From Deltaproteobacteria bacterium TL4 (GTDB lineage Bacteria > SAR324 > NAC60-12): a stretch of DNA of 53,477 bases. The translations under genes and the position numbers were made by a program. The notes under the pieces were generated by a model. The model searched no databases. It was not told where the DNA came from and saw only the letters and a list, made by a program, of their open reading frames with translations. The stretch spans positions 1-53,477 of the forward strand of contig JBBCAX010000237.1 of the NCBI GenBank assembly GCA_051382335.1, in the 5' to 3' direction. This document shows, in pieces, positions 7,366-30,109 of this stretch. The first letter of the stretch is position 1. Each line of letters begins with the position of its first letter.

Positions 7366-7369
7366 TGAT

Positions 7370-13801: not shown

Positions 13802-14000
13802 AATAGAGCTGGACTTTGAACATTTGATTCATGGTTTTAGTTTTAATTATTCAATAATATCAGTGGTTTTATTTTATGAATGAATTAATGCAAGGTTATT
13901 ATTTCCCGTTTTTCAGGCCAAACCTATCATTAATTCTAATACGACTTTATAAGTCTCTGATTTTATTCAGGAGTAATATTGAGCAAATTGTTCAAAGTCG
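13802..14000 (-). promoter_or_regulatory. Leader of CRISPR array 1, with IHF-like motifs
   Basis: AT-rich non-coding stretch next to the first repeat in transcript orientation; WATCARNNNNTTR match on the minus strand at 13950-13962 and a one-mismatch match at 13858-13870. Confidence 0.7.
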
Positions 14001-14040
14001 AGAATAGAGGTAACAATGGATAATGCAGCAAATGATAAGG

Positions 14041-15263: not shown

Positions 15264-16187
15264 TTTTGGAAATTGAAAGATTGATTGACTTGAAAGGCAA
15301 AGTTGCAGGCTATCCTGCCATAAGGTTTTGTGTTTTTGCAAGGGATGTAAAGGAGAACAGGATTGAATCTCTGGAATTTCAAACTGACCAAAGCCAAAAG
15401 AGCGATTTTTTCCAACGCCAAGCCATTGTCGCAAGACGAATGCTTCCGAGCCTTCTTCGTTCAATTGACCTCTCACCCCAAGTGTTCCCATCCATCCGCC
15501 CAGCGTTTTTTCATCCTCCCCCCCGCCATAACCCACATCGACCCACATGCCATGAGCAAAACGTGTTTCTGTCCAGTCCAGAGGAACCTGTTCTTCGGTC
15601 AATTCTTCATTTTGAAGAACTTGACGCAGGAGGTGGTGAACGTTATCAACATGTTTTCGAAAATAAAGATCATCACAATAACGATGCCCGTCCTGTTTTT
15701 GTCCTTCGGGACGTGTCAGCCTGAGCGGAGCATGAAATATCAGGCGAAATTCAAAAGCATGGCGTATGGCTTCCACGCTGGATTGGAGCAAATCAGAGGT
15801 CAGGAGGGTTGGCGCTTGCTGAGGCCACGGAGTTCCTTTTACTCGACAATGTCCTTCTTTCAAGCGAATGGTTGTTTCAGGCACAAAATGGCCATGAGCG
15901 CCCGTGATTCGTGGCAACGAGTCGATGACTTGTTGAAAGCGGGTGAGCTCCTTCTCTGGAAATGAAACACCCAGTTCGATGAGGTCTCCCGGTTGGTAAG
16001 CTGGGATACCTGAGTCAGCAGGAGTTACAATGACGTCCGTTTGATGAAAGTTTTCCTCCGGAAGGAGGAAGGGATTGTAGGCAAAACGGAGCATTGCCGA
16101 CCATAAAGCTCCCTGATAATGCGGCAGGGACTTGATCGGAGTCAGGACTTTAAAGGTGAGAGTGAGGAAATAACGTGGATTGGACAC
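15255..16187 (-). CDS. cas6: Cas6 endoribonuclease, probable remnant of a Cas6-RT-Cas1 fusion
   Basis: G-loop LGVGKNRSFGFGQF; FHAPLRL; the stop codon lies inside the CRISPR repeat. Confidence 0.85.
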   Translation of the reverse strand: MSNPRYFLTLTFKVLTPIKSLPHYQGALWSAMLRFAYNPFLLPEENFHQTDVIVTPADSGIPAYQPGDLIELGVSFPEKELTRFQQVIDSLPRITGAHGHFVPETTIRLKEGHCRVKGTPWPQQAPTLLTSDLLQSSVEAIRHAFEFRLIFHAPLRLTRPEGQKQDGHRYCDDLYFRKHVDNVHHLLRQVLQNEELTEEQVPLDWTETRFAHGMWVDVGYGGGEDEKTLGGWMGTLGVRGQLNEEGSEAFVLRQWLGVGKNRSFGFGQFEIPEIQSCSPLHPLQKHKTLWQDSLQLCLSSQSIFQFPKVE

Positions 16188-16199
16188 AATTACCTATGC

Positions 16200-17369
16200 C
16201 TATTGAGGCGCAATGGTTTTGGTTTTAGTCAGAAGACCACAGTACTGTTGAAGTTCACCCAATGTCTTTTTTTGCCAAGGCGCAGGTTTCACCCATTGTT
16301 TTTTCCAGTAGGCAAGAATTTGTTGTCCCAGTTCTTGTTTTTGCATTGTCAATTGTTCAGGAGAATCGACAGAGGTTTCTCCAGGAGGAAGCAGGTCAGG
16401 AGATTTAAAGAAAAGGAGCACTTTATCAGGCTTAATGAGACTCTTTCGGGTATCTTCGAGATAGCGGTCATTCCACTTTAAGAGATTTCGTTGTTTCAAT
16501 TCTGCTTCTTGCTCTTGTCGTGCCTTTTCTGCCTGTTGCCGTTTTTGGAGTTCCAGACGGAATTGTTCCTGTCGTTTCAGTTCCTCTTCCCACAAAACTT
16601 GAAACCGTCCATAACCCACGGATGTTTTTCCGCCGAGTCCTTCCTCTGAAAGCACTTTTTTCAAGGCCTTCCTAAGGAAAAAAAGGGATTTATCGGGACC
16701 TTGGAGGGAGACAAAAAACTTCAAACCACTCCGCAAAGCGGCTATTTTAACAGGGATTGGATTTTCAGTGCCATCGGGCAAACGTTCTCCTGAATAATAT
16801 TTCTGATGATGGACATTGATAATGTCTTCCTCAAACCACCGATCCTCCGGGTGCATCCACGCATCAAAAAAAGTAACCGAGCCCACATAGGATTTCTTGT
16901 CAAACTCACCCCCGAAGAGTTCCACCTGATTCGCTGATTTTTGAGTGTTCTTTGAGGAACGAGACCAGGCTTCCCCGCTCTGTTTACTCAACCAGGCAGA
17001 AAGGATTCCCTTGAGGGTACTGCCTGGAATATAAGGTACTCCCCACGGTTTGTTCAGATGGAATCCAAATTCAAACACGGAGGCATTTCCCGTTCCTAAC
17101 AAAATTTTTGTGAGCGAGAGAATATCAAAAGAAATGGTATCATGCTCTCTCTTGCGCATCGTATTGACCCAGTGGTGAAAGGCATACTGATAACTTTCTT
17201 TTAATGACGGAGACATTCTGAAATTTGCCAACAAGGCCAAGGATTTATCCTTGGTTTGGTGTTCCTGATGTTCATCAATAGACTCATTAAATTTATCAAT
17301 ACGAAGCCCCAGATTATCGACACGGAGGCCGGAAATAAATTGGTGATCCGTTCTGATTGCTTCTATCAT
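16200..17369 (-). CDS. cmr6: Type III-B RAMP Cmr6 with C-terminal extension
   Basis: WGVPYIPGSTLKG; DIINVHHQKYY; ENPIPV; GLGGKTSVGYGRF. Confidence 0.93.
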   Translation of the reverse strand: MIEAIRTDHQFISGLRVDNLGLRIDKFNESIDEHQEHQTKDKSLALLANFRMSPSLKESYQYAFHHWVNTMRKREHDTISFDILSLTKILLGTGNASVFEFGFHLNKPWGVPYIPGSTLKGILSAWLSKQSGEAWSRSSKNTQKSANQVELFGGEFDKKSYVGSVTFFDAWMHPEDRWFEEDIINVHHQKYYSGERLPDGTENPIPVKIAALRSGLKFFVSLQGPDKSLFFLRKALKKVLSEEGLGGKTSVGYGRFQVLWEEELKRQEQFRLELQKRQQAEKARQEQEAELKQRNLLKWNDRYLEDTRKSLIKPDKVLLFFKSPDLLPPGETSVDSPEQLTMQKQELGQQILAYWKKQWVKPAPWQKKTLGELQQYCGLLTKTKTIAPQ

Positions 17370-17776
17370 ACCTCATCTCCCTCTTCGGCGGTTCCTTCAA
17401 TGAGGATATCCGCAATCCGTTTATGCCATTGTAAAAAGCGTAAGACCTCTTTAGTGGTCTGCATGTATTCAGGAAGGTTTTGACGTCTCACCATTTCTAA
17501 CAGGGTTCGAGAATCAGTAGCGGTCACCAGACGCATCGCATGAAGTTCCTGGGTCAAATGGTCTAATAAATATTGGTGATGCACCTCGCGGGGTTTGGTA
17601 GCTTTGGCCGCCAAAAAAGTCAGGAACTGGATCAACCCGACGGTGCGCATGACCCCGCCCGCCCTTTTACAGAGGGATTTATAGCGTTTGACAGGTTTGT
17701 CCTCCCCTTTTTCCATTTTCAGTTGTTCTATCTTTTTAAACACAAGGTCGGAATACTTTTGATTTTTAGTTTGCAT
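17366..17776 (-). CDS. cmr5: Type III-B small subunit Cmr5
   Basis: Position between cmr4 and cmr6; VGLIQFLTFLAAK; EYMQTTKEVLRFLQWHKR. Confidence 0.9.
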   Translation of the reverse strand: MQTKNQKYSDLVFKKIEQLKMEKGEDKPVKRYKSLCKRAGGVMRTVGLIQFLTFLAAKATKPREVHHQYLLDHLTQELHAMRLVTATDSRTLLEMVRRQNLPEYMQTTKEVLRFLQWHKRIADILIEGTAEEGDEV

Positions 17777-18698
17777 GGGTTCCCCCTTCCTGATTGAAGT
17801 GAATTTCGACAAAACCTTTGCCGGTAGTCGATTTGCCGCCAATCTGAAATTGCAGGTGATTTCTGATTAAAAAACCGGAAAGTTCCTCTGCCGTTTTTTT
17901 GAATTTTTCCTTGTAGGATTTATCCACGCCAATCATGCCCACAAACAGGGATTCCATGGGGACGGTTTCTTCATACCAGAGCGCTCCCGTTTTGACAGTT
18001 CCTGTTTCCTGATCGATGGCGATTCGGGCATCCACCGGTAAGGCGGTTTCACACAAAAAATTCAGAGCGTTATCATCAGCAATCACAAAACGTTGCTTGA
18101 ATATTTTCTGGCCTTCCTCGTCCTGAAAAAATAGGGGAGCTATCACATCCGCCCATTTATCGGCCAGTTCGGTTTGTTTTGAATCAATCAGCAAATCCAG
18201 TTCTTCCAGAAGAATCGAATTTCTCTGTGGATACTGAATCAGGGAGTTAGGTGGAATTAATGCTTTATAGTTGGGATTCTGATCTCCAGACATACCGAGC
18301 GATGGAATTGCGGGAAGGTAGCTCTTTCCGGATCTTTCAAGCAATTTTTTAAGTAGTTGCAACGTGTAGGGAGAAGCAAGGTAGGCAAAAGTGCCAAAGT
18401 AGGAGCGCACGGGAAGAGCCAGCAGATTGGCATCGCCTACTGAAATGGCGGAGGCGAACTCATTGCCATCTTTGCCAAACAGGGCTTCAATATACTCTGT
18501 TTTTTGCGCTTGATCCTTGGGAACAATCGTTCCATTTGAAAATTCATCTTTCATCACTCCTTTCAAGGAGGATCCGGGCACAATGGGGTGTCCCGACACA
18601 GTATTTCTTGCGGTGGGCAGATCAATATCACTAAGTCCTTGACCAATGCCACAATGAAGAGGGGAAAGTGTTTTGAGTGAAAACAGGATATTTTTCAT
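17766..18698 (-). CDS. cmr4: Type III-B backbone Cmr4
   Basis: PLHCGIG; IDLP with the catalytic Asp retained; PGSSLKG; GALWYEE; QIGGKSTTGKG. Confidence 0.95.
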   Translation of the reverse strand: MKNILFSLKTLSPLHCGIGQGLSDIDLPTARNTVSGHPIVPGSSLKGVMKDEFSNGTIVPKDQAQKTEYIEALFGKDGNEFASAISVGDANLLALPVRSYFGTFAYLASPYTLQLLKKLLERSGKSYLPAIPSLGMSGDQNPNYKALIPPNSLIQYPQRNSILLEELDLLIDSKQTELADKWADVIAPLFFQDEEGQKIFKQRFVIADDNALNFLCETALPVDARIAIDQETGTVKTGALWYEETVPMESLFVGMIGVDKSYKEKFKKTAEELSGFLIRNHLQFQIGGKSTTGKGFVEIHFNQEGGTHAN

Positions 18699-18735
18699 GA
18701 TAACTCCTCAGAAAATAGTAAGGGATAAACAAAAA

Positions 18736-19914
18736 TTAAGAAAGTTGAACGTTGGCGTTTGCCACAAGCACTCTTCCAAAACCATCTTTGGCAGACTGAG
18801 AGCCTTCCTGACAAAGAGTTTTTCCCCAAAGCGTCTCCGCAATATTTTGGGATTCTTCCGGATGGTTAACTTCCAGCAGGAAAACGGCGCCAGGTCTCAC
18901 CATTTTCCTCATGGCCTTGGGTTTATTACTCGGGTAATCCCACCCACTGATCCCATCCCACCCTTGAATAACGGCAGATCTCAGGCGAATCTGAAGAGAT
19001 GAACCAGGAAGAACAACCCATTCAATGGAATCTTTCTGGAGGTCAGGTTTTAGCCAGGCAGGACACCAGTCTCCAAAATCTCCGTGCGTTTGAAGCACTA
19101 ATTTCAGAAAGGGTTTATTGGAAAATTGATTGGGACAGCCTGGAAATTTTATCTCTGTGGGTTCCAGGTTCGCTTGTTTACGTTCGCCTCCCAGATAGAC
19201 ATTCCCCTGGAGTTTATCGGTCTCTCCCTGTACTGAAAGATAAATGAAAAGATCGCATGAACAATTTTGATGTTTTGGAGCATTTGGGGGAGTGCTTCGG
19301 GTTTTCAGATAAAATCCTGAATTTTTATAAAGGGCTCCCTGTTGGGTGATTCGAGAGTGAGCGTCTAACGCATTGTGAAATCGTTCGCTTGGGATGGGAG
19401 GCGTTACCCCAAAATGCTCAAAGGCCATTTCGCCTTCCTCCGTATGATTCAGGTAATACTTCTCGTAATAAGCCCAATGAAGGAACGCAGGATGATGTTT
19501 GGAAGGTTTATCCCTGGTATTGGAGAAGGGAATCAGCCATTCCCGGTTTCTGAGGTCGGTACCCTGAGTCGGCGGCAGTTTTTGGTATTGAAGAAGGGAT
19601 GTTTTTAACTTTCCAGTGGCTCCGTCATTGAACACGACATCTGCAGGAATCTGTACCAGGGGGAGCGGTTCCTTGTCCATCCCCAGATAGGGCTGGATGG
19701 CATTTAAGGTAATTTCTTGTTTTAAGGACTCTGCATTTTTGCTATTACGGAAATAATCCTGATCCCTTGAAAGACCGACTTTGGTTCTCACCATTCCAGC
19801 CAGGGTGTGGGGTAACGGCCATAACAGGGAATTTCCGCCAAACATCCCCTCCTCGCCAAAAGGACGGCCATCCCGAAGAATGATGGATTCATCTGATTTT
19901 AAGAGATAGTTCAT
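18736..19914 (-). CDS. cmr3: Type III-B Cmr3 (Cas5-like)
   Basis: LRDGRPFG; PLPHTLAG; LGGERK; SGWD...PKAMRKMVRPGAVF; DGFG. Confidence 0.92.
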   Translation of the reverse strand: MNYLLKSDESIILRDGRPFGEEGMFGGNSLLWPLPHTLAGMVRTKVGLSRDQDYFRNSKNAESLKQEITLNAIQPYLGMDKEPLPLVQIPADVVFNDGATGKLKTSLLQYQKLPPTQGTDLRNREWLIPFSNTRDKPSKHHPAFLHWAYYEKYYLNHTEEGEMAFEHFGVTPPIPSERFHNALDAHSRITQQGALYKNSGFYLKTRSTPPNAPKHQNCSCDLFIYLSVQGETDKLQGNVYLGGERKQANLEPTEIKFPGCPNQFSNKPFLKLVLQTHGDFGDWCPAWLKPDLQKDSIEWVVLPGSSLQIRLRSAVIQGWDGISGWDYPSNKPKAMRKMVRPGAVFLLEVNHPEESQNIAETLWGKTLCQEGSQSAKDGFGRVLVANANVQLS

Positions 19915-21656
19915 AAGGGACTCCTTGATCCATGTGGGGTTAAATTCAGGATGTCAGCAATCTGCTTGGCCACAATCATTTCCTGAGAGAGTTCACGAAT
20001 GGAGTTACATCCCAAGAGAATATTTTTTAGTGGCTTTTGGAGTTCAATCGATTGCTCATGAGTTTTTTCCTTGTGTCGCAAGGTTCTCAATACGAGAGCG
20101 GACGCTGCGTTGGTGGGTGTCAAAATATCATTGTTTTCTTCAAAACGTATAGAGTCTCCTGCGCTGAGCATCGCCTCTCTCAGTTGGTAGCCCAGAGTTC
20201 CAGGCAAGGGATGATTCTCTTCAAGATAGAGTTGAATCATGGTCTGAAGCCGCTTCACAATCCCCTCTTTTCCATCACGTTTCTCCCATTTGCCCCCAAT
20301 GAGTATATCATTCCCGGAGCGTTTGCTTTGAATAATAGCCAAGGCATTTCTGCCCCCCTGGTCTTTCGCTGATTTTTCAGCGTTTCTGGCAAGTTTAAGC
20401 GCATGATCCAGAGGTTCCGAATGATGCACAATCGCCAATCCAATACTCAAGGTCGGAACTCTTTGCGGGTTGAGTTTCAATTCTTGACAGACGTTCTTCA
20501 TCACTTCCTCAAATTTCTGACGAATGGCATCACAACCTTCCAGGGCAGTGTGAACCGGAAGATACGCCATGACATCATCGCCTCCTGAATAAATCAGAGA
20601 CCCCTGAGCCTTTTGGATCAGGTTGCCCACCTCATGAGAGAATTGAGCCAGCGACTGAGAAAAGATTTGATGCCCCTGTTTGTCTTTGATTTCATCAAGA
20701 GCCGGCCCCATTTTGTCTCCATCACCAACAAGGATGCAAGCATATTTTGGGGGTTCTCCAGCCATGTTCTTGTGTCTCAGTTTTTTCAAAATCGCCCAGG
20801 CTTCCCCGGCGGTTCCAGGATCACTCAACTCCAACTTGTTTTCATTTTCCGCATAATAGTTTTCCTGGCTGAAATCACCACCAAAACAGGCTTCAAATTG
20901 TTGCTTCAGAACTTTAGCTTCCGGGTGTTGCTTAATTTTTTCTTCCCAGGGAATTAACGCGATATCCGCCAGATCCTTAAATTTTTGTTTGAACCGTGTT
21001 TTATCGCTTAAAGGGCAAAAGCGTTTGACCAGGCCCAGAGCATCCAGTTTCTCTGATTTTTTCAAGAGACCTGGAACCTCTGAACCTCGCTCAATCACCG
21101 TTTCACGGAGGCCATCCAAGGAGTTTTTGAAGAGTCCTGTTCCATCCCAGGTTGGTTTTTCAAAGGCTCTCAGGTTTTTTCTCGCTGATAAAAGTCGCTC
21201 AACCTGATCTTTGGCCTTGGCATAGTTTTCGTCTTTGAGTTCCACCCAAACGGCATAGAATTCACCAAAATCCTTCATCTGCTGCTGTACCAAGTCCTGA
21301 TTGATTTTAAACTTTCCGATGCTGCTAACCTTCTTCAGTGCCTTGTTTTGATAGTCATCCCGATCTGTTTTCAAGTTTTTTCTGACTTCCGTGACCAAGG
21401 TTTCAGGCACGACAGACTCTGGCAATTCGGCCAAAATCTTGTTGGCGACATTCAGGGCAGAATCAGGTTCCAGATCAGAGTGGTTTTGAGGAGATGGGAA
21501 AATCAATTCCGCGCCCGAATCCCTGAGCGTCCTGGCAACTGTTTTGGAGAGTTGTGAGAGCAGATACGAGCCAAACCAGAGATCTCTCAATTTTCTGGCG
21601 GAGGCAATAAATTCCTGAACCGGACCAATGCTGATCAATAACAGTTTTTTACTCAT
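19911..21656 (-). CDS. cas10: Cas10/Cmr2, HD-less, with cyclase palm motifs intact
   Basis: SIGPVQEFIASARKLRDLWFGSYLLS; GDGDKMG; YSGGDDV; no N-terminal HD domain. Confidence 0.95.
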   Translation of the reverse strand: MSKKLLLISIGPVQEFIASARKLRDLWFGSYLLSQLSKTVARTLRDSGAELIFPSPQNHSDLEPDSALNVANKILAELPESVVPETLVTEVRKNLKTDRDDYQNKALKKVSSIGKFKINQDLVQQQMKDFGEFYAVWVELKDENYAKAKDQVERLLSARKNLRAFEKPTWDGTGLFKNSLDGLRETVIERGSEVPGLLKKSEKLDALGLVKRFCPLSDKTRFKQKFKDLADIALIPWEEKIKQHPEAKVLKQQFEACFGGDFSQENYYAENENKLELSDPGTAGEAWAILKKLRHKNMAGEPPKYACILVGDGDKMGPALDEIKDKQGHQIFSQSLAQFSHEVGNLIQKAQGSLIYSGGDDVMAYLPVHTALEGCDAIRQKFEEVMKNVCQELKLNPQRVPTLSIGLAIVHHSEPLDHALKLARNAEKSAKDQGGRNALAIIQSKRSGNDILIGGKWEKRDGKEGIVKRLQTMIQLYLEENHPLPGTLGYQLREAMLSAGDSIRFEENNDILTPTNAASALVLRTLRHKEKTHEQSIELQKPLKNILLGCNSIRELSQEMIVAKQIADILNLTPHGSRSPL

Positions 21657-22942
21657 TTGACCTCCGTTAATCCGAGATGTGTTGCCAAGGTTTTGTAAAT
21701 GTCCCTGATTCCGCTTAATCGAGCTGGAGTGTTCATGTTCATGATTTTCCCCTGGGTATGGGTTGGAAGCTCGCCTTGGGTTACGGTGTGGGAAGCCTTA
21801 CCATATTTCAACACAAGCGTATCAGGAAACTTTTGTCCGAGAGCCAGACAAATGGAATATCCCTGACTCCTGGAAAGTTTGACGACCTTCAGAATCATGG
21901 GAGAAGGGAGTCTTTCACCCGTTCCAATATTGGGTTCCAAATGAAAGTCACCTGACGGATCCCCTTGTCTATCCATATTTTGGAAACGCGATAAAATGGG
22001 GAGACCAAAAGCGGCGCGAGGAAACCATATTTTATCCGGATGCCGAGGTTTGTGAATGGTGAACTGCTTGGTGATCGACCGAATCGCATCCGGTTCTGGC
22101 CAATAGGAACGTCCTGGCCTATTGCCTTGTCCAGGGGCTCTGTCCTGACGAAATTTTCCATAGTTATCCAATAAGGCATGCCATTTGTTGGCGGGAAGTT
22201 CAGTCCAGGAATTACTGGCGGCAAGATAGAATTTATTGAAGGAGGGATAAGCAGTTGAAATACGGGCATCATTGAGTTCATCCAGAAACTTTTTTATATC
22301 GTGAATGTCCTTGAATTTCTCAAGTAACTCCTTACAGTAAAGAGATCCGGTTCCACGGCGGGTACGAGCTCCAACGCCGCCAAACAGCGTCCATAATTGC
22401 AAAGTTTTGAGGACCTCTGCTTCCTGAGCCTTTGGATAAGTGATCCCCAAATCAAAAGTCAGCTTAATGATAAAAACAATATGATCTCCATTTTTAACCT
22501 TATCCGTGATGGGGAATAAGACATATTTGGGAATCACATCGCCCCTGACCGCATATTTACTTTCCATTTGGGCTTTTTGGCTTTTCTCCACTTTTTGGTT
22601 GATCACCGAAATGGAAACTTTGGATTTTTTTCTATTCGCTTCATCCGAGTCCTTGAATTTACCTCCCCATAGCGTGTTTTCCCGATATAACAAGTGTTTC
22701 ACATCGGTTTCGTGTTGCATGGTTCGCCACCAGAAGCGCAACTGCCCTTTGATCGACTGGGATCTGACGGGGGCTTTTTCATTGATCTGCCAACTGGTGG
22801 AGTCTCCTCCAAACATAGGCGTAATTAACTCAAACGAGTACGTTTTTGTAATTCTGTCAGAGGTCTCTGGTGAAGATTGGCCTTCCGCAGGTGAAGTTTG
22901 AAATTCCGTGATGGTGTTGGGTATTGAACGGATTCTTCTCAT
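21653..22942 (-). CDS. cmr1: Type III-B Cmr1
   Basis: LITPMFGG; SIKGQLRFWWR; FGGVGARTRRGTGS; PRAAFGLPI. Confidence 0.93.
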   Translation of the reverse strand: MRRIRSIPNTITEFQTSPAEGQSSPETSDRITKTYSFELITPMFGGDSTSWQINEKAPVRSQSIKGQLRFWWRTMQHETDVKHLLYRENTLWGGKFKDSDEANRKKSKVSISVINQKVEKSQKAQMESKYAVRGDVIPKYVLFPITDKVKNGDHIVFIIKLTFDLGITYPKAQEAEVLKTLQLWTLFGGVGARTRRGTGSLYCKELLEKFKDIHDIKKFLDELNDARISTAYPSFNKFYLAASNSWTELPANKWHALLDNYGKFRQDRAPGQGNRPGRSYWPEPDAIRSITKQFTIHKPRHPDKIWFPRAAFGLPILSRFQNMDRQGDPSGDFHLEPNIGTGERLPSPMILKVVKLSRSQGYSICLALGQKFPDTLVLKYGKASHTVTQGELPTHTQGKIMNMNTPARLSGIRDIYKTLATHLGLTEVK

Positions 22943-23051
22943 GGTGTTGTGTCCTCCCATGGATGTGTAAAATACGGAGTTATCCTGTTGTGAATTTCTT
23001 GTTCCCTAACAAGAGCTCGAAGCATTGTCAACAGGCGTTATCAAAAAAAAA

Positions 23052-23318
23052 TCAATGCTCAATAGCTACAAAAAACTGGTTTTCCTTGGGATCAAAGATA
23101 CTCACGCTTTTACAGATATGTGCCAGTTCATGTCCCAGACAAAGAGCCATTCCGGTGGTGACACGGCCATAAATCCGGATGTGTTTTCCGTAAAGTTGGG
23201 GAGCTATCTGCCGTATCTCTTGACGGCATTGCGTGATCAACTCCCCCTGGGTCTTTCCGGCTGGAAGCTCGGTATTGAGTTGTAAGGTAATCTCATCAAT
23301 GGTGTCTAGTGTCAGCAT
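23052..23318 (-). CDS. csx3: Csx3/Crn3-like ring nuclease
   Basis: IYGR...LGHELAH...VSIFDPK...VAIEH fits the Csx3 pattern GR..H..H..(Y/F)DP..H; directly upstream of cmr1. Confidence 0.72.
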   Translation of the reverse strand: MLTLDTIDEITLQLNTELPAGKTQGELITQCRQEIRQIAPQLYGKHIRIYGRVTTGMALCLGHELAHICKSVSIFDPKENQFFVAIEH

Positions 23319-23327
23319 GTTGATTTC

Positions 23328-23729
23328 CTAATTCATCCAGAAGGTTTTAACATTGTACTTTGGAATGGTTTCATCTCGTGTGACCAGGAAAGCATCCAGG
23401 GACTGAGCTTGCGCAATCAGGAGTCGATCAAACGGGTCTTTGTGATGATCTGGAAGGAGAGTCGCTTCAATACTTTCCATAGCGGAAGGAGCTACCACTT
23501 CAAAATCTGAATTTTCTTTCAATTCAACATACCATTGTTTTACACTGCCATTGATCTTCAAACGTTCTTTCTTCACCAGTAATCCGATTTCCCAGAGCGA
23601 AATGGTCGAAACCAGGAGCGAGCCTTGTCTCTCCTGTTCATCCAGAAATTGGAGAAATCTTTCTGAGATTTCGGTTCTGGAATCCCAAAAGACGAGGGCA
23701 TGAGTATCCAGCAAATATTTATTCTTCAT
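23328..23729 (-). CDS. vapC: VapC-family PIN toxin
   Basis: LLDTHAL; STISLWEI; HHKDPFDRLLIAQA; LVTRD. Confidence 0.92.
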   Translation of the reverse strand: MKNKYLLDTHALVFWDSRTEISERFLQFLDEQERQGSLLVSTISLWEIGLLVKKERLKINGSVKQWYVELKENSDFEVVAPSAMESIEATLLPDHHKDPFDRLLIAQAQSLDAFLVTRDETIPKYNVKTFWMN

Positions 23730-23953
23730 AAATATCCTTCAAACACATCCTCCATAGGAGCAAAGGCTTCTTGGGCAGGAACCTTCAACTCAACCTTATG
23801 TTTGCGTTGGTTTCGCCAGTGGGTATCCTGGACAGGGACAAGTTTTACGGTTTCTTTGCCCTTGTGAGTGATCAGAATCACATGCCCCCGTTCCGCCTTC
23901 TCCACATACTCAAACAGATTCTTTCTCAAGGTGCTTATCGTAATCGTTTCCAT
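23726..23953 (-). CDS. Phd/YefM family antitoxin
   Basis: TITISTLRKNL...GHVILITHKGKETVKLVP; ATGA overlap with vapC. Confidence 0.9.
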   Translation of the reverse strand: METITISTLRKNLFEYVEKAERGHVILITHKGKETVKLVPVQDTHWRNQRKHKVELKVPAQEAFAPMEDVFEGYL

Positions 23954-24591
23954 AGGTTTTCCTCAGATTTAGGGCTTTTGGTGTAATACGCTTTTGTATT
24001 TTGAGCGAACCATTCTTTATGCCGTGAACGAATCCTTGGAAAGATTTTCATCATTCGGTAATCAGCCGTCAATAAAATGATCTGATCAGATGGGTGTTCT
24101 TTAGCCAGTTCATTCGCATAAACAATAATAGCTGAATCCATCCCATCCAGTATTTTTTCTTTTTCTTTTGTTGTGTTGTCTTTCCCTGAACGCATCCACT
24201 GAAAAGTTTTATCATCAATGAGATCAAAATCTCTCACAATATCTTGTGCGTCAGGATAGGGCGATAGGCCTTGAGGGAAGAAATAAAATTCATGTTTGGT
24301 CAGAATCACCCTTTCGATTTGCTGAACATAACTTTCCCTTTTAAAGAACCATAGTTTCAGATTTGCCAAATCTTTGGATACATCCATATCCTTGTGAAGA
24401 ATACCTCCTAAAAATTCACACCATACTAAATCTGGCACATAAATCCTATCGGAGGTGTTTTCACAAAAATTACGAATGTGATTATTGACCTCAGGATTGG
24501 GTGTGAATTTTTCATTAGCTTGTTCAACAGAGGGAAGATAGGAGGCAATCCACTGAAAGAGAACATTGGTATCCAGAATATAAATTTTCAC
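23935..24591 (-). CDS. Large PIN-domain protein, predicted active RNase
   Basis: YILDTNV; YVPDLVWCEF; DGMDSAI; LLTADY retain the acidic PIN tetrad; GTGA overlap with the upstream gene. Confidence 0.8.
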   Translation of the reverse strand: MKIYILDTNVLFQWIASYLPSVEQANEKFTPNPEVNNHIRNFCENTSDRIYVPDLVWCEFLGGILHKDMDVSKDLANLKLWFFKRESYVQQIERVILTKHEFYFFPQGLSPYPDAQDIVRDFDLIDDKTFQWMRSGKDNTTKEKEKILDGMDSAIIVYANELAKEHPSDQIILLTADYRMMKIFPRIRSRHKEWFAQNTKAYYTKSPKSEENLWKRLR

Positions 24592-25550
24592 ATTTCCTCC
24601 TGTTGTTCGTTGTTCGCCAAATCTGCTTCATCTAATTCGTAGTCGTCACTTTCCCACTCTTCCAAAACATCCTCAGGCAGAGTGATGTGAATGCGTTTCA
24701 AGGCGTCCATATCAGCAGGGAAGATTTCCTGTTTGCCATACCAGGTGACCGCGTCTTTGAGGGCGTCCGCCAAAGAGGTTTGCCACTGAGGATTCGTAAG
24801 ATCAATCATCCGGAAAGGATGAAGGTTGACGATAGGCAGAATGGAAGTAATGTTTTCATCTTTGGCTTCACAGCCCACAATCACCTGGGGCTTCGGTACG
24901 CTTGAGAAAAGATGTGGTAAGACTTCTTCTACTTCGCTGGAACTGAATTCATTCTGAATTGCCAAAACGATTCCATACTCCTGAAGAACACAGGAATTGG
25001 CATGTTCCAGAGACATCTGAACAATTTGCCATTCTGCACCCAACACACTCAGAATGGTTTCCTGAGCTGGAGCGATGAGGTTCTCCTGTGAACTGACCAC
25101 TAATATTTTGGAAGGGCAGGTTTCCTTACGCAGAGGCGAGGAGGAAGGCGCACGAAATTGAGTGACTTGTTGAATGTGTTTAAGTAGAGACTCAATGCCA
25201 TCTTCTTTTTTATGCACATAAGCGAAGCAATGGGCGTTGGCCGCTTCAAACCAGTCTTTTACAGTGCCAGCTCCACTGAACATGATGACCTTTGTTTGGT
25301 TGTGTAAGGAAACGAACCGTTTTAATACTTTGACACCATCGCCTTCCTGTTCATCAATCAAATGGCTCATATCAATATCCAGCACAAATACATCATAAAA
25401 TTTATGGTAATAGGCTTCAATCGCCTGGCTCATCGTACTCACAAAATCCAGACTGTACCCGGCTTGTTCAATACTTTCACAGGTTCGTTCTATAATATTT
25501 TCACTGGGTTGATCGTCCATAAACAGAACTGAATATTTTTTTTCTGACAT
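24588..25550 (-). CDS. Response regulator: receiver, pseudo-receiver and acidic tail, no DNA-binding domain
   Basis: VLFMDD; FVLDIDM (phosphoacceptor Asp); MFSG; YVHK. The second alpha/beta domain lacks the Asp. Confidence 0.82.
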   Translation of the reverse strand: MSEKKYSVLFMDDQPSENIIERTCESIEQAGYSLDFVSTMSQAIEAYYHKFYDVFVLDIDMSHLIDEQEGDGVKVLKRFVSLHNQTKVIMFSGAGTVKDWFEAANAHCFAYVHKKEDGIESLLKHIQQVTQFRAPSSSPLRKETCPSKILVVSSQENLIAPAQETILSVLGAEWQIVQMSLEHANSCVLQEYGIVLAIQNEFSSSEVEEVLPHLFSSVPKPQVIVGCEAKDENITSILPIVNLHPFRMIDLTNPQWQTSLADALKDAVTWYGKQEIFPADMDALKRIHITLPEDVLEEWESDDYELDEADLANNEQQEEM

Positions 25551-25560
25551 AACCTTCCTT

Positions 25561-26940
25561 TTATAATTGAATTTCAAATTGAGCGCCCTCAAGAGGTTGA
25601 GGTTCGCTGAGAATAAGTTTTCCTTTCAATAACTCTTGAATGGCGGTGCGCGCTTGATATAATCCCAAACCTGTTGATTTTTGAATGCCTTTACTGCTCA
25701 CATAGCGTTCAAAAATACGATCTTTGAGTGTGGGATCAATCCCTCCCGCATTATCGCTCAAGATCAAATGTCGCTGAGCCATATTCAATTCTATCTTAAT
25801 GAGCCTCTGTTCTTTTGGGATTTTCTTACGTTCAAAGGCTTCAATGGAATTTTTGATCAGATTTCCGACCGCCAACAGGAAATAATCCAGGTCGGACTTC
25901 CAAAGAACTGGGGAACCTGTACTATTAATCTGGAATTGTGCCTGAAATTCCAGTGCCATTTTTTCAATTTCATTCTTTGGGTCAAACTCTCTATACTTTG
26001 CCTGTATATTTTGGACAAAACGATGTACTCCCAAGATGTGATGAAGCATCGTTTGAGATTGAGACACCAACTTCCCCGATTCTTCTGTTTTAATCACAAG
26101 TTGACTGAGTTTATCCAAATTTGCCTTCAATCCCGCTAAATCGGTATTTGCGTCATGATGGAATCGGCGAATCTGTTCCTGAACACGCTGACGGTTTTCA
26201 ATGTAGGTTTTTCGGGTTTTTGCAAACTGATCGTTGGGCTGGATTTTTATACATTCATTGACCCAATTCAGAGCTTCCATCTCCCCTTTTTCTCCCCCTG
26301 TGAAATAGGCCAGATCCGAAAGAATATTCATCACCATCGCCCGGGAGTGAAGATAGCTTTCATGGGGTTCCACATTTTCTGAAACTTCCAGATACAAAGT
26401 AGCCAGTTGCTGGGTGTTATCCAAATAGTTCGTGTGTTGAAATGCAATCCGCTCCTGGTTGATCAAATCCATCAAAACCGGCAACACCAAGGGATATCCC
26501 CACTCAGGGAGGGATAGAAATTTTTCTACCCATTGACAGGTCTGTTCCTTCAACGAATCTTGCTTGAACCGGATGAGCAACTCTACCAGGTCTTTCAGCC
26601 GCTCCGGAGGGTCTCTTACATCTTTTGTTACGGACGCAGGCTCCTCGGAATAAGCGATCTTCATCAAATGAATATAGTTTCCAAGAAATGTTTCAAACCG
26701 TAGAAAGTAATCCTGAAATTCAGCTTGTTGTTTCAGCACAGCTCCGGAAGCTGAAGCCGCCATACGATTCTGCAGAATCGCTTTTTGAAAAGACGTCATG
26801 GAGGACTCACGTTCTTTGTAATGCGCCTCAAACCGGGGCAAGGCTTCCAGGTATTTTCCCTTAGTAAACAAATCCTGAATAATTTTCTGATATTCAGGAT
26901 CGTGATGTGTCCATTGTGGCGTTGGATTCGAGTGACTCAT
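25561..26940 (-). CDS. Soluble histidine kinase with helical/TPR-like N-terminus
   Basis: H-box RRFHHD; N-box NLIKNSIEA; DNAGGID; STGLGLY; no TM segment. Confidence 0.85.
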   Translation of the reverse strand: MSHSNPTPQWTHHDPEYQKIIQDLFTKGKYLEALPRFEAHYKERESSMTSFQKAILQNRMAASASGAVLKQQAEFQDYFLRFETFLGNYIHLMKIAYSEEPASVTKDVRDPPERLKDLVELLIRFKQDSLKEQTCQWVEKFLSLPEWGYPLVLPVLMDLINQERIAFQHTNYLDNTQQLATLYLEVSENVEPHESYLHSRAMVMNILSDLAYFTGGEKGEMEALNWVNECIKIQPNDQFAKTRKTYIENRQRVQEQIRRFHHDANTDLAGLKANLDKLSQLVIKTEESGKLVSQSQTMLHHILGVHRFVQNIQAKYREFDPKNEIEKMALEFQAQFQINSTGSPVLWKSDLDYFLLAVGNLIKNSIEAFERKKIPKEQRLIKIELNMAQRHLILSDNAGGIDPTLKDRIFERYVSSKGIQKSTGLGLYQARTAIQELLKGKLILSEPQPLEGAQFEIQL

Positions 26941-28391
26941 GGTTTCTCCTGTTTTTTACGTAGAAAAGGGGCAATGTCAATGACTTCCTTGATGGGAAAA
27001 GAAGGTCTCCAACTTCCTTTGCAAATCCAGTGAATATTCCACTTTCCCGCATTGGGATGCTGGAGCAAGGTCTGAACCGCATACTCCCCGGAATTTCCCA
27101 CCAAAACCAGGGTCTGAAGATTATTCCAATGAGGATCCAGTTCGTGAATCAAAGACTTGGAACCATCCTCCTGATTAGGAAACAATACCACCTGAAGTTT
27201 GTATGAATCCTGTAACATTGTAAAAAAAGGATTCCCCTGAACTGTATTTTTATTATTGTAATTGTTTTTTTGAAAGAAAAACCGTGGAGTCAGGGTGTAT
27301 TGGTATTGAAAGCGGCGATACAATTCCTGAAAATTAAATTGCTCATCACGGGTTGTTAAACCATCTGACCAAACCACCAGAGCCGCTGGCGGCAATTGTT
27401 GATTTTCACGATATTGCCAGGAAGCCCGTTGAGAGTGGTTAGGTGAAGAGGCTTGTTTGTGGGAAGAGGCTTTTGCCTGCTGAGAAGAACGAATCTCCTG
27501 CTTTTTTTCGTCAGACATCAGAAATATTTCAGCCTCAGTCGCGTTTTGGAAGCGTTGACTGGGATCTGGTTGCAGACACATCACCACAAAACGTTCCCAT
27601 TTTTCTGGTAAATCCAAGGCATGAACACGATTTTGCAGATCTAGTGGAAACGGATCATTACCAGGAATCCATTGCTGATATTCTTGCGTGGTCATGAGCA
27701 TCTGCAAGATCAACTTTCCCAGTGCATAAATATCGGTGGCTGGTGACAAGCTCCCCTGAGGATCAAAGCATTCAGGCGCAGAAAACATGGGATTAGGCCG
27801 TAAACAGAGTTTGTTGGGATTGTATCCAATAAACTCTGCCAGGAAGGTTAAGGCATGAACCCCCAGAAAGTAAGGTTGAAAGGTTGTAGGATTCAACACG
27901 ATTTTGGAAAGTGGAAGTTCTTGCAGGATTTTTTTATCAGCATGCAATCCTTTGAATGTTTTAAGGCAAGCAATAACGGTTTTTTTCAGGTTGGACAACT
28001 TATACTCATCCTCTTTTTTCAAGGGATAGAGTTTGCGTCCTTCTGCCTGAGCCAGAATCAAGCCCCGTTCCTGGGAACGCAGGTCATACGCCAGCTCATC
28101 CTGAGTATTGGTAAACTCTATGAGGTCCACAGGTTCCGGCAAAAAAGTATAGTTTCCACACAGAGCCTCCGCCATTCGGTCAAAGGAGGCTCGTAACTCT
28201 CTGATCGCGAAGGCCGTATTTTGTTCAGGCAAATTTTGGTAGTTCAAGGTCATGAGCAAGAGGGAGCGAGGCAACCACTGATCTGCCACTTCCCACATCT
28301 GGTATTGGGGATGAGTGAAAAAGTGTCGCAGAATTTTCCAGCGCTGTTCCCCGCGCTGATCCTGAAGAATGGTATTAGGAGCAAGGTTCAT
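26937..28391 (-). CDS. Pseudokinase fused to a degenerate NYN/LabA-like domain
   Basis: Kinase C-lobe (FSAPE, TDIYALG, CLQPDPSQRF), but HRD/DFG are replaced by ILQEL/FLG. The C-terminal pattern VVWSDG...TLVLVGNSGE...EVIDI resembles NYN. Start at the ATGA overlap (28391). Confidence 0.65.
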   Translation of the reverse strand: MNLAPNTILQDQRGEQRWKILRHFFTHPQYQMWEVADQWLPRSLLLMTLNYQNLPEQNTAFAIRELRASFDRMAEALCGNYTFLPEPVDLIEFTNTQDELAYDLRSQERGLILAQAEGRKLYPLKKEDEYKLSNLKKTVIACLKTFKGLHADKKILQELPLSKIVLNPTTFQPYFLGVHALTFLAEFIGYNPNKLCLRPNPMFSAPECFDPQGSLSPATDIYALGKLILQMLMTTQEYQQWIPGNDPFPLDLQNRVHALDLPEKWERFVVMCLQPDPSQRFQNATEAEIFLMSDEKKQEIRSSQQAKASSHKQASSPNHSQRASWQYRENQQLPPAALVVWSDGLTTRDEQFNFQELYRRFQYQYTLTPRFFFQKNNYNNKNTVQGNPFFTMLQDSYKLQVVLFPNQEDGSKSLIHELDPHWNNLQTLVLVGNSGEYAVQTLLQHPNAGKWNIHWICKGSWRPSFPIKEVIDIAPFLRKKQEKP

Positions 28392-28895
28392 AAGTTCCTT
28401 TGAAATGAAAATATTTGTTTCAACGCTTCTTCCATAGAACCAAACCGCCTGGAAACCTCTGACTGAGTAGCTTTGACAATCCAGTCTTTCCATTCAACAG
28501 GGAAAGCCTTGAGCAGATTGTAATCAAAAATGGCTTCCCCTTGCGGATTGGCTTTGGGCGGTTGTTCTGTCAGGATATGATACAAACTGGCTCCGAGAGA
28601 ATAAACATCGGCGCGGGCATCCAGTTTGGTTGTATCAAATGAAGTTTGGGTAAATTCAGGCGGCTGATAACCTGGTGTTCCGGTACGGGCATATTGTGCG
28701 CTTGTCTGGCCATCAATCCTCACGGCAAATCCTCCAAAATCAATGAGCACAAACTTTTTTTCCCGGGTAAAGATTACATTATCCGGTTTCAGATCCTGAT
28801 AGATGAAGCTGACCTGCTTTCCCTTGTCATTTCGTTCCTCCTGGTGAAATCGCTCCAGCATCCTGCCCACCTGAATCACAAATTGTTTGGTATTC
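28388..28895 (-). pseudogene. Ser/Thr protein kinase, N-lobe lost at a MITE
   Basis: YQDLKPDN; LIDFG; GTPGYQPPE; ADVYSLG. The Gly-loop and VAIK region are absent and the 5' end abuts MITE C. Confidence 0.85.
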
Positions 28896-29056
28896 CGGGA
28901 CCTTTCAAAAGTAGTTTACACTTTGTTGTCATTCCCGCGTAGGCGGGAATCCAGTCTTCGATACAGGGCGCTGGATTCCCGCGTTCGCGGGAATGACATC
29001 TCAACGGATGGAACGACAAACTGTAAACTAAAATTCAGCATTTTTGAAAGGTGCCC
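28896..29056. mobile_element. MITE family C, copy 2
   Basis: GGGACCTTTCAAAA ... CTGTAAACT...TTTTGAAAGGTGCCC; core GTCATTCCCGCG-GCGGGAATCCAG ... CTGGATTCCCGC-CGCGGGAATGAC. Confidence 0.85.
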
Positions 29057-30041
29057 TGGCTATTGTTACAATTTTATTTCCATTATCATCCCGTAAGACT
29101 TGATGATAGGCTTTGCGTTCGTCATTGCCTTCCCAGCAACTGTCCTCCAGAACGTATCCAAGCCCTTCCAGCTTTTCTGATAAATCAATCTGGAAGTTCG
29201 CTCTAAAAACGGAAGAAACAAATGAATCCTGAGCTTGATAGACCGTTTCTCTGATTTTCTGATACGTTTCTTCTGAGGTTGTTGTGATTTCCTGTAATTC
29301 CTCCATGGAAAGTTGAAAGGGTGAGAGTTCCAGTCTGGTTTGCATCGTCTTTATTTGGGTTTGAAGGCTATCCAACGCATGATTTGACCAGGTATTGACA
29401 TCCAGTTTCACCTGCTGCTCAGCGCCTTCCATCTGAAAATCAACTTCACAACTATCACGGAACAAGGATTGGGTTTGCTCAAATTTTTCCAGAGCCAGGT
29501 CATGAGCTTCATGCCATGCTTGTTCTTTTTCCTGAAGTTTTCGATCCAGTTGGAGGGCTTTTCTGAAATTTTCCTGAGCTAACGCAATAGCTGCCTCAGC
29601 GACCTTGTTTTCCAGATTCTTTTTTGCCTGAGTCAGTTGTATTTGTAAATCCTCAAGTTCATGAGGGAAAAAGATTTTGTGTGAGGGATGAGTTTCCAGG
29701 TAATGGAGTTCCTGTTCCAGCATCCTGATCCATTCCTTGCCAATAGCCTGCGCATTCTGATATTGTTGTTGGATTCGATTTGTAATTTGATCGATTTGCC
29801 CCTGTAAGTCCTGCCTCAATTTTTTTATATCAATCTGCAAATTCTGATAATGCTGTTTCATTTGCCGATCCTGTTCTTTAAGCCTGGCTTCCAGATGTTT
29901 TTGCTGTTTTTCAAGTCGTTGTTGTTTCTCCTGTTCCTGTTTTTGCTTCCATGCCAATTCCTGAGTTTCTTTTGCCGCTTTTTGCCACTGTTCAACCTGT
30001 GAACGCCGCACTTGAACATACTGGTCATAACTACTACTCAT
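29028..30041 (-). CDS. Coiled-coil hypothetical protein, C-terminus truncated by the MITE
   Basis: Q/E/K-rich heptads; GGAG ribosome-binding site; the last residues RAPFKNAEF are read from the MITE end. Confidence 0.7.
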   Translation of the reverse strand: MSSSYDQYVQVRRSQVEQWQKAAKETQELAWKQKQEQEKQQRLEKQQKHLEARLKEQDRQMKQHYQNLQIDIKKLRQDLQGQIDQITNRIQQQYQNAQAIGKEWIRMLEQELHYLETHPSHKIFFPHELEDLQIQLTQAKKNLENKVAEAAIALAQENFRKALQLDRKLQEKEQAWHEAHDLALEKFEQTQSLFRDSCEVDFQMEGAEQQVKLDVNTWSNHALDSLQTQIKTMQTRLELSPFQLSMEELQEITTTSEETYQKIRETVYQAQDSFVSSVFRANFQIDLSEKLEGLGYVLEDSCWEGNDERKAYHQVLRDDNGNKIVTIARAPFKNAEF

Positions 30042-30109
30042 AATTTTTCTCCGTTGTAAAAGATGTGCAAAAAATAAAAGTGTATTGGCTTACGTTGATA
30101 GCCAGTTGA

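Follow-up and report, generated by a model that had tools for sequence, protein, structure and literature searches.

A candidate mobile module ancillary to type III CRISPR, with a histidine kinase, response regulator and PIN domain core

Gene content of the locus

The window, a 53,477-nucleotide stretch of contig JBBCAX010000237.1 from Deltaproteobacteria bacterium TL4, carries a run of minus-strand genes leading into a type III-B operon (Table 1). All the genes listed in an earlier note on this DNA are present, in the order claimed there: coiled-coil gene (CC), Ser/Thr kinase (STK), pseudokinase (PK), histidine kinase (HK), response regulator (RR), PIN, phd, vapC, csx3 and cmr1. Their junctions are spaced by +148 nt (CC-STK), +5 (STK-PK), -4 (PK-HK), +10 (HK-RR), -4 (RR-PIN), -19 (PIN-phd), -4 (phd-vapC), +9 (vapC-csx3) and +91 (csx3-cmr1), with 4-nt overlaps at three of the nine. 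The pseudokinase and RR starts in the table are the likely ones judging from the N-termini of homologs.

Table 1. Features of the locus, with positions in the window
Feature	Position	Strand	Evidence or content
CRISPR array, 49 repeats	11598..15272	.	repeat count
Type III-B operon	15255..22960	-	cmr1, cas10, cmr3, cmr4, cmr5, cmr6, cas6
Probable Csx3/Crn3 cA4 ring nuclease, 88 aa	23052..23318	-	PADLOC Csx3 E 2.2e-4
Phd/VapC toxin-antitoxin pair, ordinary	23328..23953	-	Phd E 2e-12; VapC PIN E 1.5e-14 (Pfam)
PIN-domain ribonuclease, predicted effector, 218 aa	23935..24591	-	D7, E59, D149, D152, D177
Response regulator	24588..25550	-	active receiver (D12, D13, D58, S92, K114), pseudo-receiver, acidic tail
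Soluble histidine kinase	25561..26940	-	N-terminal TPR-like helical domain, DHp helix with His262, HATPase domain
Pseudokinase with C-terminal alpha/beta domain	26937..28382	-	Pkinase E 0.0024; catalytic HRD, DFG not conserved
Ser/Thr kinase, C-lobe only	28388..28879	-	Pkinase E 4.5e-16; YQDLKPDN and LIDFG kept, N-lobe lost
MITE-like repeat, 160 bp	28896..29056	.	terminal inverted repeats and internal hairpin (I6)
Coiled-coil gene, first of the operon, C-terminally truncated	29028..30041	-	homology to L005 protein

This arrangement lies far above chance, because close homologs are numerous for both the pseudokinase (27, at 38-46% identity) and the HK (42, at 33-49% identity) and gene order is conserved. 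Conservation of the module is well founded, and its extent had been underestimated. Intact homologous operons, about twice as long as stated, begin with coiled-coil, radical-SAM-like, tandem AAA ATPase, coiled-coil, PP2C, vWA and FHA-like genes, followed by the Ser/Thr kinase, pseudokinase, HK, double receiver (RR) and PIN. As judged by homology, the genes in the window are the surviving ends of this larger conserved operon.

Damage to this copy

The 160-bp repeat has 100% identical copies on contigs C107 and C38 and a partial one on C23; no target-site duplication is seen around it. It occupies the place of roughly 8-9 kb of missing operon, truncating the coiled-coil and kinase genes and joining the former to the kinase C-lobe, and it supplies the last codons and the stop of the coiled-coil gene. 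The product of that gene resembles a coiled-coil/Fer4_12 protein of an intact operon (L005; 27% over 293 aa, E 3e-26), and its homologs extend beyond its truncated end. The kinase remnant aligns at 51% identity to the intact L005 kinase, over residues 179-349 of the latter. None of the AAA, PP2C, vWA, FHA-like, radical-SAM-like and short coiled-coil genes that intact homologs carry turned up in this assembly. The kinase N-lobe is indeed gone, as had been noticed from the sequence, but the damage is larger than that loss. The upstream portion, which we propose below to be a switch, is destroyed in this copy; the pseudokinase-HK-RR-PIN part is intact and may still work.

Kinase motifs occur in 12 of 12 homologs. 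Module kinases measure 333-392 aa and end shortly past the C-lobe, and a single 789-aa fusion ends in a degenerate, kinase-like tail. The C-terminal alpha/beta domain of the pseudokinase is possibly an inactive NYN-like fold: an NYN profile matches one of 14 family members, weakly (E 0.097), and the C-terminus has no PDB match and no invariant Asp.

Histidine kinase, response regulator and PIN

The catalytic residues are intact in all three core proteins, namely the phospho-acceptor His and N and G boxes of the HK, the acidic pocket, Asp, Ser/Thr and Lys of the RR, and the acidic residues of the PIN. The HK matches HATPase_c (E 1.6e-10, Pfam), and H262, D263, N364, D396, G400, G424 and G426 are invariant in 84 of 84 sequences. 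Its AF2 model (pLDDT 94) matches HK folds with Z up to 18.6 and TPR proteins with Z of about 12. The RR is a 320-aa double receiver (Response_reg E 9e-13; receiver fold Z 16) whose active-receiver residues are invariant in 21/21, and the last 45 aa average 32% D+E. The resemblance of its second domain to the receiver-like OKR_DC_1_N is a lead only. Domain analysis agrees with the initial description of a receiver plus pseudo-receiver that has no DNA-binding output; the sole hint of one, an RHH_5 match over 14 residues, fails the cut-off (E 0.006). HK and RR carry the canonical two-component residues, from which His-to-Asp transfer is only predicted.

The PIN protein, from a family of 205-260 aa, has neighbours in the PIN-like atlas and a weak PIN_4 match (E 3.7e-4) that falls under every Pfam PIN cut-off. 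Its acidic residues are invariant in 16/16 and 19/19 sequences in two alignments. PIN matches occur in 25 of 41 loci, with the RR directly upstream each time; no PIN fusion proteins were found, which is weak evidence. The earlier note had proposed modelling an RR-PIN complex, and one is predicted, with a score of 0.87 against 0.54 for the best of three controls; the mark for this score is reached by 116/157 solved pairs and 2/215 mismatched ones, counts that are only rough with our own alignments. Model runs agree in at least 85% of contacts, with partner pLDDT of at least 83. The modelled interface involves N9, D54, W57 and D177 of the PIN and W270, I276 and 287-299 of the RR, and it places the RR tail at the rim of the PIN active site. 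Conservation is no higher at the predicted interface residues than elsewhere (RR 0.57 vs 0.57; PIN 0.51 vs 0.48).

Two HK homologs, P0032 and P0033, carry a CARF7 domain fused in-frame and join the window's HK in a 97/93 clade. They are 70% identical overall (CARF part 68.5%, HK part 70.6%), so that by sequence comparison the CARF7 domain is conserved as strongly as the kinase part. A CARF domain is present in only these two of roughly 100 family HK sequences, and the others have no recognisable nucleotide sensor. The module proteins of the window have no CARF or SAVED match in Pfam or PADLOC profiles.

Linkage to type III loci

The module's link to type III systems, suggested by this single locus, is strong by genomes, metagenome loci and controls alike. 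Among 15 other genomes with the module, eight have adjoining cas genes or arrays (G016, G041, G043, G044, G377, G453, G660, G893), two are suggestive, one has none and four have contigs that are too short; homologs are thus far from never being near type III loci. The core is embedded in a III-D operon in G660, and the G044 module has cas6, cas10 and csm genes interspersed. Linkage was positive at 10/27 metagenome loci (7/9 among those of at least 8 kb), against 1/72 loci of generic kinases and 0/50 of generic HKs in the same scans (together 1/122); these counts are not independent, because several of the positive loci nearly duplicate one another (L087=L099; L094-L096), and the cas reference set, drawn from family loci with self-hits excluded, may favour family loci over controls. 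CRISPR arrays taken alone occur at 6/35 loci vs 0/122 controls.

The GGDD motif is present in 9/9 Cas10 proteins examined at module loci and the N-terminal HD is absent in 8/9; the window's cas10 likewise has an intact GGDD and no N-terminal HD. Ring nucleases recur (Csx16 in L085, L086 and L204; Csx20 in L172). The module often adjoins cas2/RT/cas1 (L001, L004, L085, L087, L096, L210), and in L178 it sits within the cas operon. HK, RR and PIN occur without upstream genes in four type III loci (L086, L098, L100, L178), which makes Ser/Thr signalling, initially taken as part of the pathway, optional; as these neighbourhoods show, the core travels alone. Decayed or orphan copies exist: L001 lacks the PIN, G016 the RR and PIN, and G043 the HK, while G816 has an HK and a truncated RR with neither a PIN nor, within 15.6 kb, a cas gene.

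Phd/VapC and csx3, at first counted as members, lie outside the conserved module, since neither has a tblastn match (E<=1e-3) in the database of homologous loci. Both are additions specific to this site, Phd/VapC being a local insertion and csx3 a part of the III-B locus. The genome holds six further vapC-like matches, and csx3 has no match in Pfam, NCBIfam or PDB.

No CARF/SAVED effector is seen in the window's III-B locus, and the module had been offered as the missing output of Cas10. That idea is weakened, because the same genome has Cad1- and Card1-like effector genes at a different type III locus, through which the window's locus could signal in trans, and because many homologous loci have known effectors (CARF7-RelE, CARF5, Csx1, Csm6-like, CARF4-nuclease and Cad1-like). 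The ORFs scanned at the loci of the window, G377 and G044 include no known effector; the Pfam scan covered part of the ORFs there.

Discussion

Our preferred reading, to which we give a probability of about 55%, is that the module is a mobile type III CRISPR ancillary with an HK-RR-PIN core, in which a His-Asp phosphorelay acting through an antitoxin-like RR gates the PIN RNase as a dormancy arm. That the module is real and linked to type III systems is very probable. The complex model makes it probable that the RR binds and regulates the PIN, and the PIN is rather likely to be an infection-triggered toxic effector. A reliance of the trigger on Cas10 signalling, for which we infer a link from Cas10 to the HK, has slightly less than even odds. 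The original interpretation thus survives in its conservation, type III link, catalytic residues and RR-PIN model, and gives way on membership, extent, the need for Ser/Thr signalling and the missing output.

In the predicted complex, the RR would bind the PIN RNase like an antitoxin, with the receiver edge and the conserved acidic tail reaching the active-site rim. The HK would phosphorylate Asp58 of the RR, and the change in phosphorylation state would free or activate the PIN, which may then cut host and invader RNA, leading to dormancy or death. The input would be infection sensed through the type III system. The CARF7-HK fusions would provide the most direct route, cyclic oligoadenylate binding switching the kinase; in unfused HKs, a partner could pass the signal to the TPR-like domain, either a neighbouring CARF protein or an optional upstream switch of AAA, vWA, PP2C, FHA, kinase and pseudokinase proteins that resembles TerY-P. 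A more specific and tentative proposal is that type III systems signal by His-Asp phosphorelay, cyclic oligoadenylate acting through a fused CARF domain or a partner on the HK and the phospho-switchable antitoxin RR releasing the PIN. The nine-gene tier would then be an optional Ser/Thr checkpoint in a reversible, multi-step gate from target recognition to arrest.

Cami1-type CARF7-wHTH-RelE effectors are activated by cA4. The P0032 and P0033 fusions share their CARF7 (APE2256) sensor, with an intact TPR-like histidine kinase in place of the RelE nuclease, and their output would therefore be phosphotransfer. VapBC and other PIN type II toxin-antitoxin pairs resemble the RR-PIN pair in the intact PIN acidic residues and in an overlapping upstream partner with an acidic tail modelled at the active site; here, however, a double receiver that is phosphorylatable and has a cognate HK takes the place of the small DNA-binding VapB. 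Ambrosia (bioRxiv 10.1101/2025.09.30.679545) is an antiphage cluster that also encodes an HK-like ATPase and a receiver, but its receiver has a wHTH, its proposed action is on transcription of an RM-like system, and it has no PIN. Cam2 (PMC11229360) is likewise a type III-associated receiver protein, in contrast membrane-bound and without a histidine kinase partner or PIN.

The upstream half can be compared with two further systems. In the account given in PMC11090510, the TerY-P triad unites vWA, a PP2C-like phosphatase and an active kinase in one operon, as do the intact homologs L005, L094 and L173; vWA and PP2C are absent from the window's copy. The same source places a SpoVK/CDC48-like tandem AAA ATPase in CoCoNuT III-A extensions too. 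Unlike in TerY-P, neither a zinc ribbon nor an OB fold is matched by Pfam at the C-terminus of the module kinase, and the operon, which is linked to type III CRISPR, also encodes FHA-like, pseudokinase, HK, RR and PIN proteins; PADLOC TerY-P profiles do not match the module's PP2C or vWA proteins. Altae-Tran et al. 2023 (PMC10910872) list CRISPR-linked vWA, kinase and phosphatase associations, their Table S3 labels including 'vwa + PPC + kinase system', 'vWA + FHA + PP2C', 'wWA + kinase', 'TPR HATPase' and 'Recep domain + 4 unknown genes'. As in this operon, vWA, PP2C, FHA and kinase genes are there tied to CRISPR loci, and one of these associations could equal its upstream half; compared by description only, the main-text passages and labels contain no histidine kinase-receiver-PIN unit and no mechanism.

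The resemblance to TerY-P lends some weight to a self-contained, TerY-P-like abortive infection system that resides in type III loci without using Cas10 signals, triggered by phage proteins or stress through its AAA, vWA and kinase proteins. The full operon has candidate sensors of its own and the vWA-PP2C-kinase triad, TerY-P-like modules are described in PMC11090510 as both stand-alone antiphage systems and add-ons elsewhere, most HKs lack a CARF domain, and known effectors often coexist. We nonetheless consider such independence unlikely: the core is found on its own in four type III loci, conserved CARF7-HK fusions exist, and the link is specific to type III and RT-cas1 loci, with a restriction-modification-like gene only at L003 among the scanned neighbours.

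The proximity to cas2/RT/cas1 and the position within cas operons would also suit a regulator of the CRISPR machinery, in which phosphorylation would adjust cas expression, adaptation (RT-Cas1) or signal decay, while the PIN would process crRNA, cas mRNA or oligoadenylate. This is improbable, given that Cas6 and dedicated ring nucleases are already in the same loci, that all 25 PIN matches are accompanied by the RR, and that the RR tail modelled at the active site fits a restrained toxin. Least probable, and by our estimate quite improbable, is that RR and PIN form an addiction module stabilising the cas locus with no part in infection. PMC10910872 reports toxin-antitoxin pairs in the vicinity of cas genes, and this very locus has an ordinary Phd/VapC pair; yet addiction does not account for the invariance of HK His and RR Asp, for nine upstream genes or for the CARF fusion, and the module is often partly lost.

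Known type III outputs are allosteric nucleases, proteases, deaminases, NADases and membrane proteins. In our searches we found no two-component phosphorelay among them and no description of the HK-RR-PIN core as a CRISPR accessory; the CRISPR association of vWA, PP2C and kinase genes is already listed. If our preferred reading is correct, phosphorylation would join the routes of CRISPR signalling and a response regulator would serve as an antitoxin. The module would then be a candidate output at some of the cyclase-positive loci that have no effector, of which 133 are reported (PMC11229360). A CARF-HK fusion with its RR and PIN makes a three-protein system that is directly testable in vitro, and a kinase responsive to cyclic oligoadenylate could serve as a useful sensor part.

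Gene order and damage in the window

The module is a real, conserved, type III-linked unit that combines signalling proteins with a predicted RNase, and the window carries a damaged copy of it. The gene series described in the earlier note is borne out by the ORF list and family scans: a coiled-coil gene (CC), a Ser/Thr kinase fragment, a pseudokinase, a histidine kinase (HK), a double-receiver response regulator (RR), a 218-aa PIN ribonuclease (PIN), phd, vapC, a csx3-like gene and cmr1 all lie on the minus strand, with successive junction spacings from CC to cmr1 of +148, +5, -4, +10, -4, -19, -4, +9 and +91 nt. Downstream of the csx3-like gene are cmr1, cas10, cmr3-6 and cas6, followed by a 49-repeat array. 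The window Cas10 contains GGDD and lacks an N-terminal HD domain, and neither a CARF nor a SAVED effector was observed at this III-B locus. HK, RR and PIN have no system-level match in PADLOC or NCBIfam. A promoter and terminator scan of the window yielded nothing usable.

Compared with L005, an intact homolog, the match of the window CC ends at residue 386 of 632 and that of the kinase starts at residue 179 of 349, so that approximately 8-9 kb is missing by arithmetic on the L005 coordinates, with the FHA gene counted or not. The genes lying between CC and kinase in L005 were not found in this assembly. The junction, which is occupied by a short repeat (see table), may represent a real deletion, or it may be an assembly collapse of a repeat-middle-repeat arrangement; both genes are interrupted under either explanation. 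Partial decay is common in the family (the window, genomes G016, G043 and G816, and loci L001 and L101). Mobile-element debris flanks the window locus on both sides. RT-Cas1 may have been lost from it; 43 aa of the window cas6 recur at 95% on C160, another contig of the same genome.

Coordinates of features in the window and in homologous loci (L numbers)
Sequence	Positions	Feature	Detail
Window	23052-30041	CC to csx3-like gene	minus strand
Window	28896-29056	160-bp repeat	terminal inverted repeats; identical copies on other contigs
Window	30038-31030	Fragments resembling transposases; repeated inverted elements	upstream of module
Window	31389-32912	dnaA-like gene	1.3 kb from first module gene
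Window	15255-16187	cas6 ORF	terminates within CRISPR repeat
Window	10681-11367	Group II intron RT fragment	far side of array
L210 (same-family genome)	3343-6072	909-aa Cas6-RT-Cas1 fusion	resembles window cas6, by eye
L003	3-4419	Two unknown genes, Hsp70-like gene, 118-aa gene	replace CC/AAA genes
L176 (G453)	6559-8928	789-aa protein	kinase and degenerate tail in one
L175 (G453, III-D locus)	11390-15691	Three unannotated genes (349, 383 and 700 aa)	between module's array and Csx1 gene
L181 (G041)	4240-11663	Prok-E2, JAB-ThiF, CARF-adenosine deaminase, NUDIX, 813-aa unknown gene	adjoin CRISPR array
L100	13124-17338	CARF5 gene, then phage-type single-subunit RNA polymerase	directly after HK-RR-PIN

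The intact operon and its distribution

Homologous loci share a conserved order: CC, a radical-SAM-like Fer4_12 gene, a tandem AAA gene (AAA_lid_6), a coiled-coil gene of about 210 aa, PP2C-like, vWA and FHA-like genes, kinase, pseudokinase, HK, RR and PIN. The FHA-like call is weak (ArnA, E 0.009; Pfam FHA below cut-off in 4 of 10 members). Phd/VapC and csx3, which the earlier note had listed within the system, find no match in these loci and were rejected as members. In L003, HK is lost and the long RR ORF comprises the C-terminal half only, beside an intact PIN.

Protein searches returned 27 close homologs among 30 matches for the pseudokinase and 42 among 66 for HK, and an HK profile search of 1.84 billion entries gave 76 clusters at E<=1e-30, a few of which are generic kinases. 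Named hosts include Thiocapsa, Thiocystis, Desulfobacterales, Anaerolineales, Nitrosomonadales and Cloacimonadota. The family is nevertheless rare and patchy. HK was detected in 1 of 301 sampled genomes (the centre genome), in 5/401 and, in a second sample overlapping that one, 7/401, in 3 of 88 including the window's genome, and in the sole member of a single-genome sample (1/1); two further samples contained none (0/151 and 0/351). The pseudokinase search was positive in 2 of 41 genomes, namely the window's genome and G016, the latter with a 31-residue remnant. The G921 contig is identical to L007 and was entered once in these counts; L202 and L203, drawn from wrong contig numbers, were excluded. 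Plasmid and phage sequences gave no RR homologs at a cut-off of E<=1e-20.

Conserved residues and predicted folds

The phosphotransfer and PIN catalytic residues are retained. In HK, His262 and the N and G boxes are invariant in 84/84 sequences, and its AF2 model (pLDDT 94) has an all-helical N-terminal half followed by a DHp helix and catalytic domain. In fold searches it resembles histidine kinases most closely (Z 18.6, rmsd 2.0, 136 residues aligned); residues 114-254 give weaker TPR matches (Z about 12), a level common for helical repeats. RR has D12, D13, D58, S92 and K114 invariant in 21/21, a five-stranded alpha/beta second domain without an invariant aspartate, and an acidic tail. Fold searches for the N-terminal domain of HK and the second domain of RR, neither of them modelled by itself, are barely informative. 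D7, E59, D149, D152 and D177 are invariant in PIN.

Catalytic motifs are present in all 12 Ser/Thr kinases. The pseudokinase has a kinase-like C-lobe that lacks HRD and DFG, and was rejected as an active kinase; an NYN identity was sought for its C-terminal domain and could not be confirmed. The tail of the L176 kinase probably corresponds to the pseudokinase gene; compared with the reference pseudokinase, it gives no significant match.

Two HK homologs, P0032 and P0033, carry an in-frame CARF7-wHTH ahead of an intact HK. They are 70% identical, with the CARF part (68.5%) and HK part (70.6%) equally conserved, and P0032 is the closest row to the window HK in the tree (47%). Three distant family HKs (P0074, P0153 and P0159) share a homologous N-terminal domain of about 300 aa with Lon-protease-like motifs by eye, a likeness left unsupported by Pfam, which gave no match there.

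The HK-RR-PIN core

HK-RR-PIN occurs without the kinases in four loci (L086, L098, L100 and L178), all of which have a CARF gene in the vicinity, and thus constitutes the minimal unit. RR lies directly upstream of PIN in 25/25 loci with a PIN match among 41 examined, all retrieved via HK or pseudokinase, so that lone PINs fall outside the sample. Longer PIN fusions were not found, which is weak evidence.

The earlier note had called for prediction of an RR-PIN complex, and the RR(1-300)-PIN model scores 0.87 against 0.54 for the best control. Among solved complexes, 116 of 157 attain the mark applied, as do 2 of 215 mismatched pairs; these rates carry over roughly to our own alignments. Contacts agree by at least 85% across runs, and partner pLDDT is at least 83. 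No solved relative of the module PIN was seen, which makes a pass by likeness less likely. The predicted interface comprises RR residues 50-51, 82-85 and 269-299; on the PIN side it includes the catalytic-site residues N9, D54, W57 and D177. From this predicted geometry, RR may mask the PIN catalytic site in the manner of an antitoxin. Conservation of the interface residues is no higher than average, which counts against masking. Overall, the module would work like a toxin-antitoxin pair under a two-component switch.

Association with type III loci

Cas genes or arrays lie beside the module in 8 of 15 other genomes, which disposes of the concern, raised in the earlier note, that such modules might never occur near type III loci. 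In G044, cas6, cas10 and csm genes are interleaved with the module, followed by cas2, RT, cas1 and an array. III-D-like operons adjoin it in G377, G453, G043 and G893, and in G660 HK-RR-PIN sits within a III-D operon that neighbours a III-B operon. A remnant in G016 lies between an array and cas6-RT-cas1, cmr6-5-4 (ORFs read by eye), and cas1, cas2, RT, arrays and a CARF-deaminase are found beside the module in G041. G357 and G810 are suggestive, having the RT-primase gene that sits between cas2 and cas1 in G044. The module fills the whole contig in G042, G045, L006 and L007. G816 has a degenerate copy and no type III linkage.

Two locus scans identified 8/80 and 27/77 as family loci, the remaining 72 and 50 (generic kinase and generic HK loci) serving as controls. 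In a uniform linkage test, family loci were positive in 2/8 and 10/27 (9/15 for loci of at least 8 kb) versus 1/72 and 0/50 controls, counts that include some near-duplicate family loci. L106 scored negative, yet Pfam finds Csm6 there. Arrays, which need no reference set, occur in 6/35 family loci versus 0/122 controls. III-B- and III-D-associated copies share clades in the HK tree, which suggests that the module may have moved between subtypes. As for the genes beside the array in L175, none matched PADLOC at E<=1e-5; the 700-aa gene has a weak Lon_C match (E 4e-6).

Role in type III immunity

We consider it most likely, with a probability of about 0.55, that the module serves type III immunity as an effector arm in which a phosphorelay gates PIN. 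Under the main rival explanation, which we regard as distinctly less probable, the module would be an arm that shares the type III loci yet acts independently of Cas10. Cas10 at module loci keeps GGDD in 9/9 examined and lacks the N-terminal HD domain in 8/9, and known effectors are present at many of these loci.

One proposal in the earlier note, that the module supplies the missing output of Cas10 signalling, is weakened. In its favour, no known effector was found among scanned ORFs at the window locus, and the same is true of G044 and of G377, which has Csx20. Against it stand the effectors at many module loci, the frequent decay of the module, and effectors at another locus in the genome: the window's genome carries two further type III loci, a III-D one on contig C160 and one on C45 that is III-A-like and includes Cad1- and Card1-like genes. 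A ring-nuclease survey (bioRxiv 10.1101/2024.09.24.614671) counted 32 loci that have a ring nuclease but lack an effector; for 9 of these, the genome holds a further locus that does bear one, and the window's genome matches this case. An array of about 186 repeats also lies elsewhere in this genome (contigs noted: C45, C160 and C90).

Comparison with published systems

The module is outside every known family that was compared. No account of an HK-RR-PIN core at type III loci was found in the literature searched, although the Makarova 2020 CARF classification, Shmakov 2018 and supplements may list it. Within the accessible portions of the sources, histidine kinases are absent among vWA-associated effectors (PMC7159879), Cam2 is without a histidine kinase, in contrast to the module (PMC11229360), the word 'kinase' is absent from the text of PMC9704534, and PMC6546367 has a single kinase family, C3a189, and no response regulators. 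According to its search listing, version 1 of PMC10542128 contains 'pseudokinase' and 'PP2C'; version 3 contains neither. Comparison also covered parts of PMC11090510 and the Ambrosia preprint. CRISPR associations of vWA/PP2C/FHA/kinase are tabulated in PMC10910872 (Altae-Tran), including Table S3; these may include the upstream half of the module operon. The CARF5 and phage-type RNA polymerase genes of L100 fit the 'csx1 + Phage RNAPol' label in the same Table S3.
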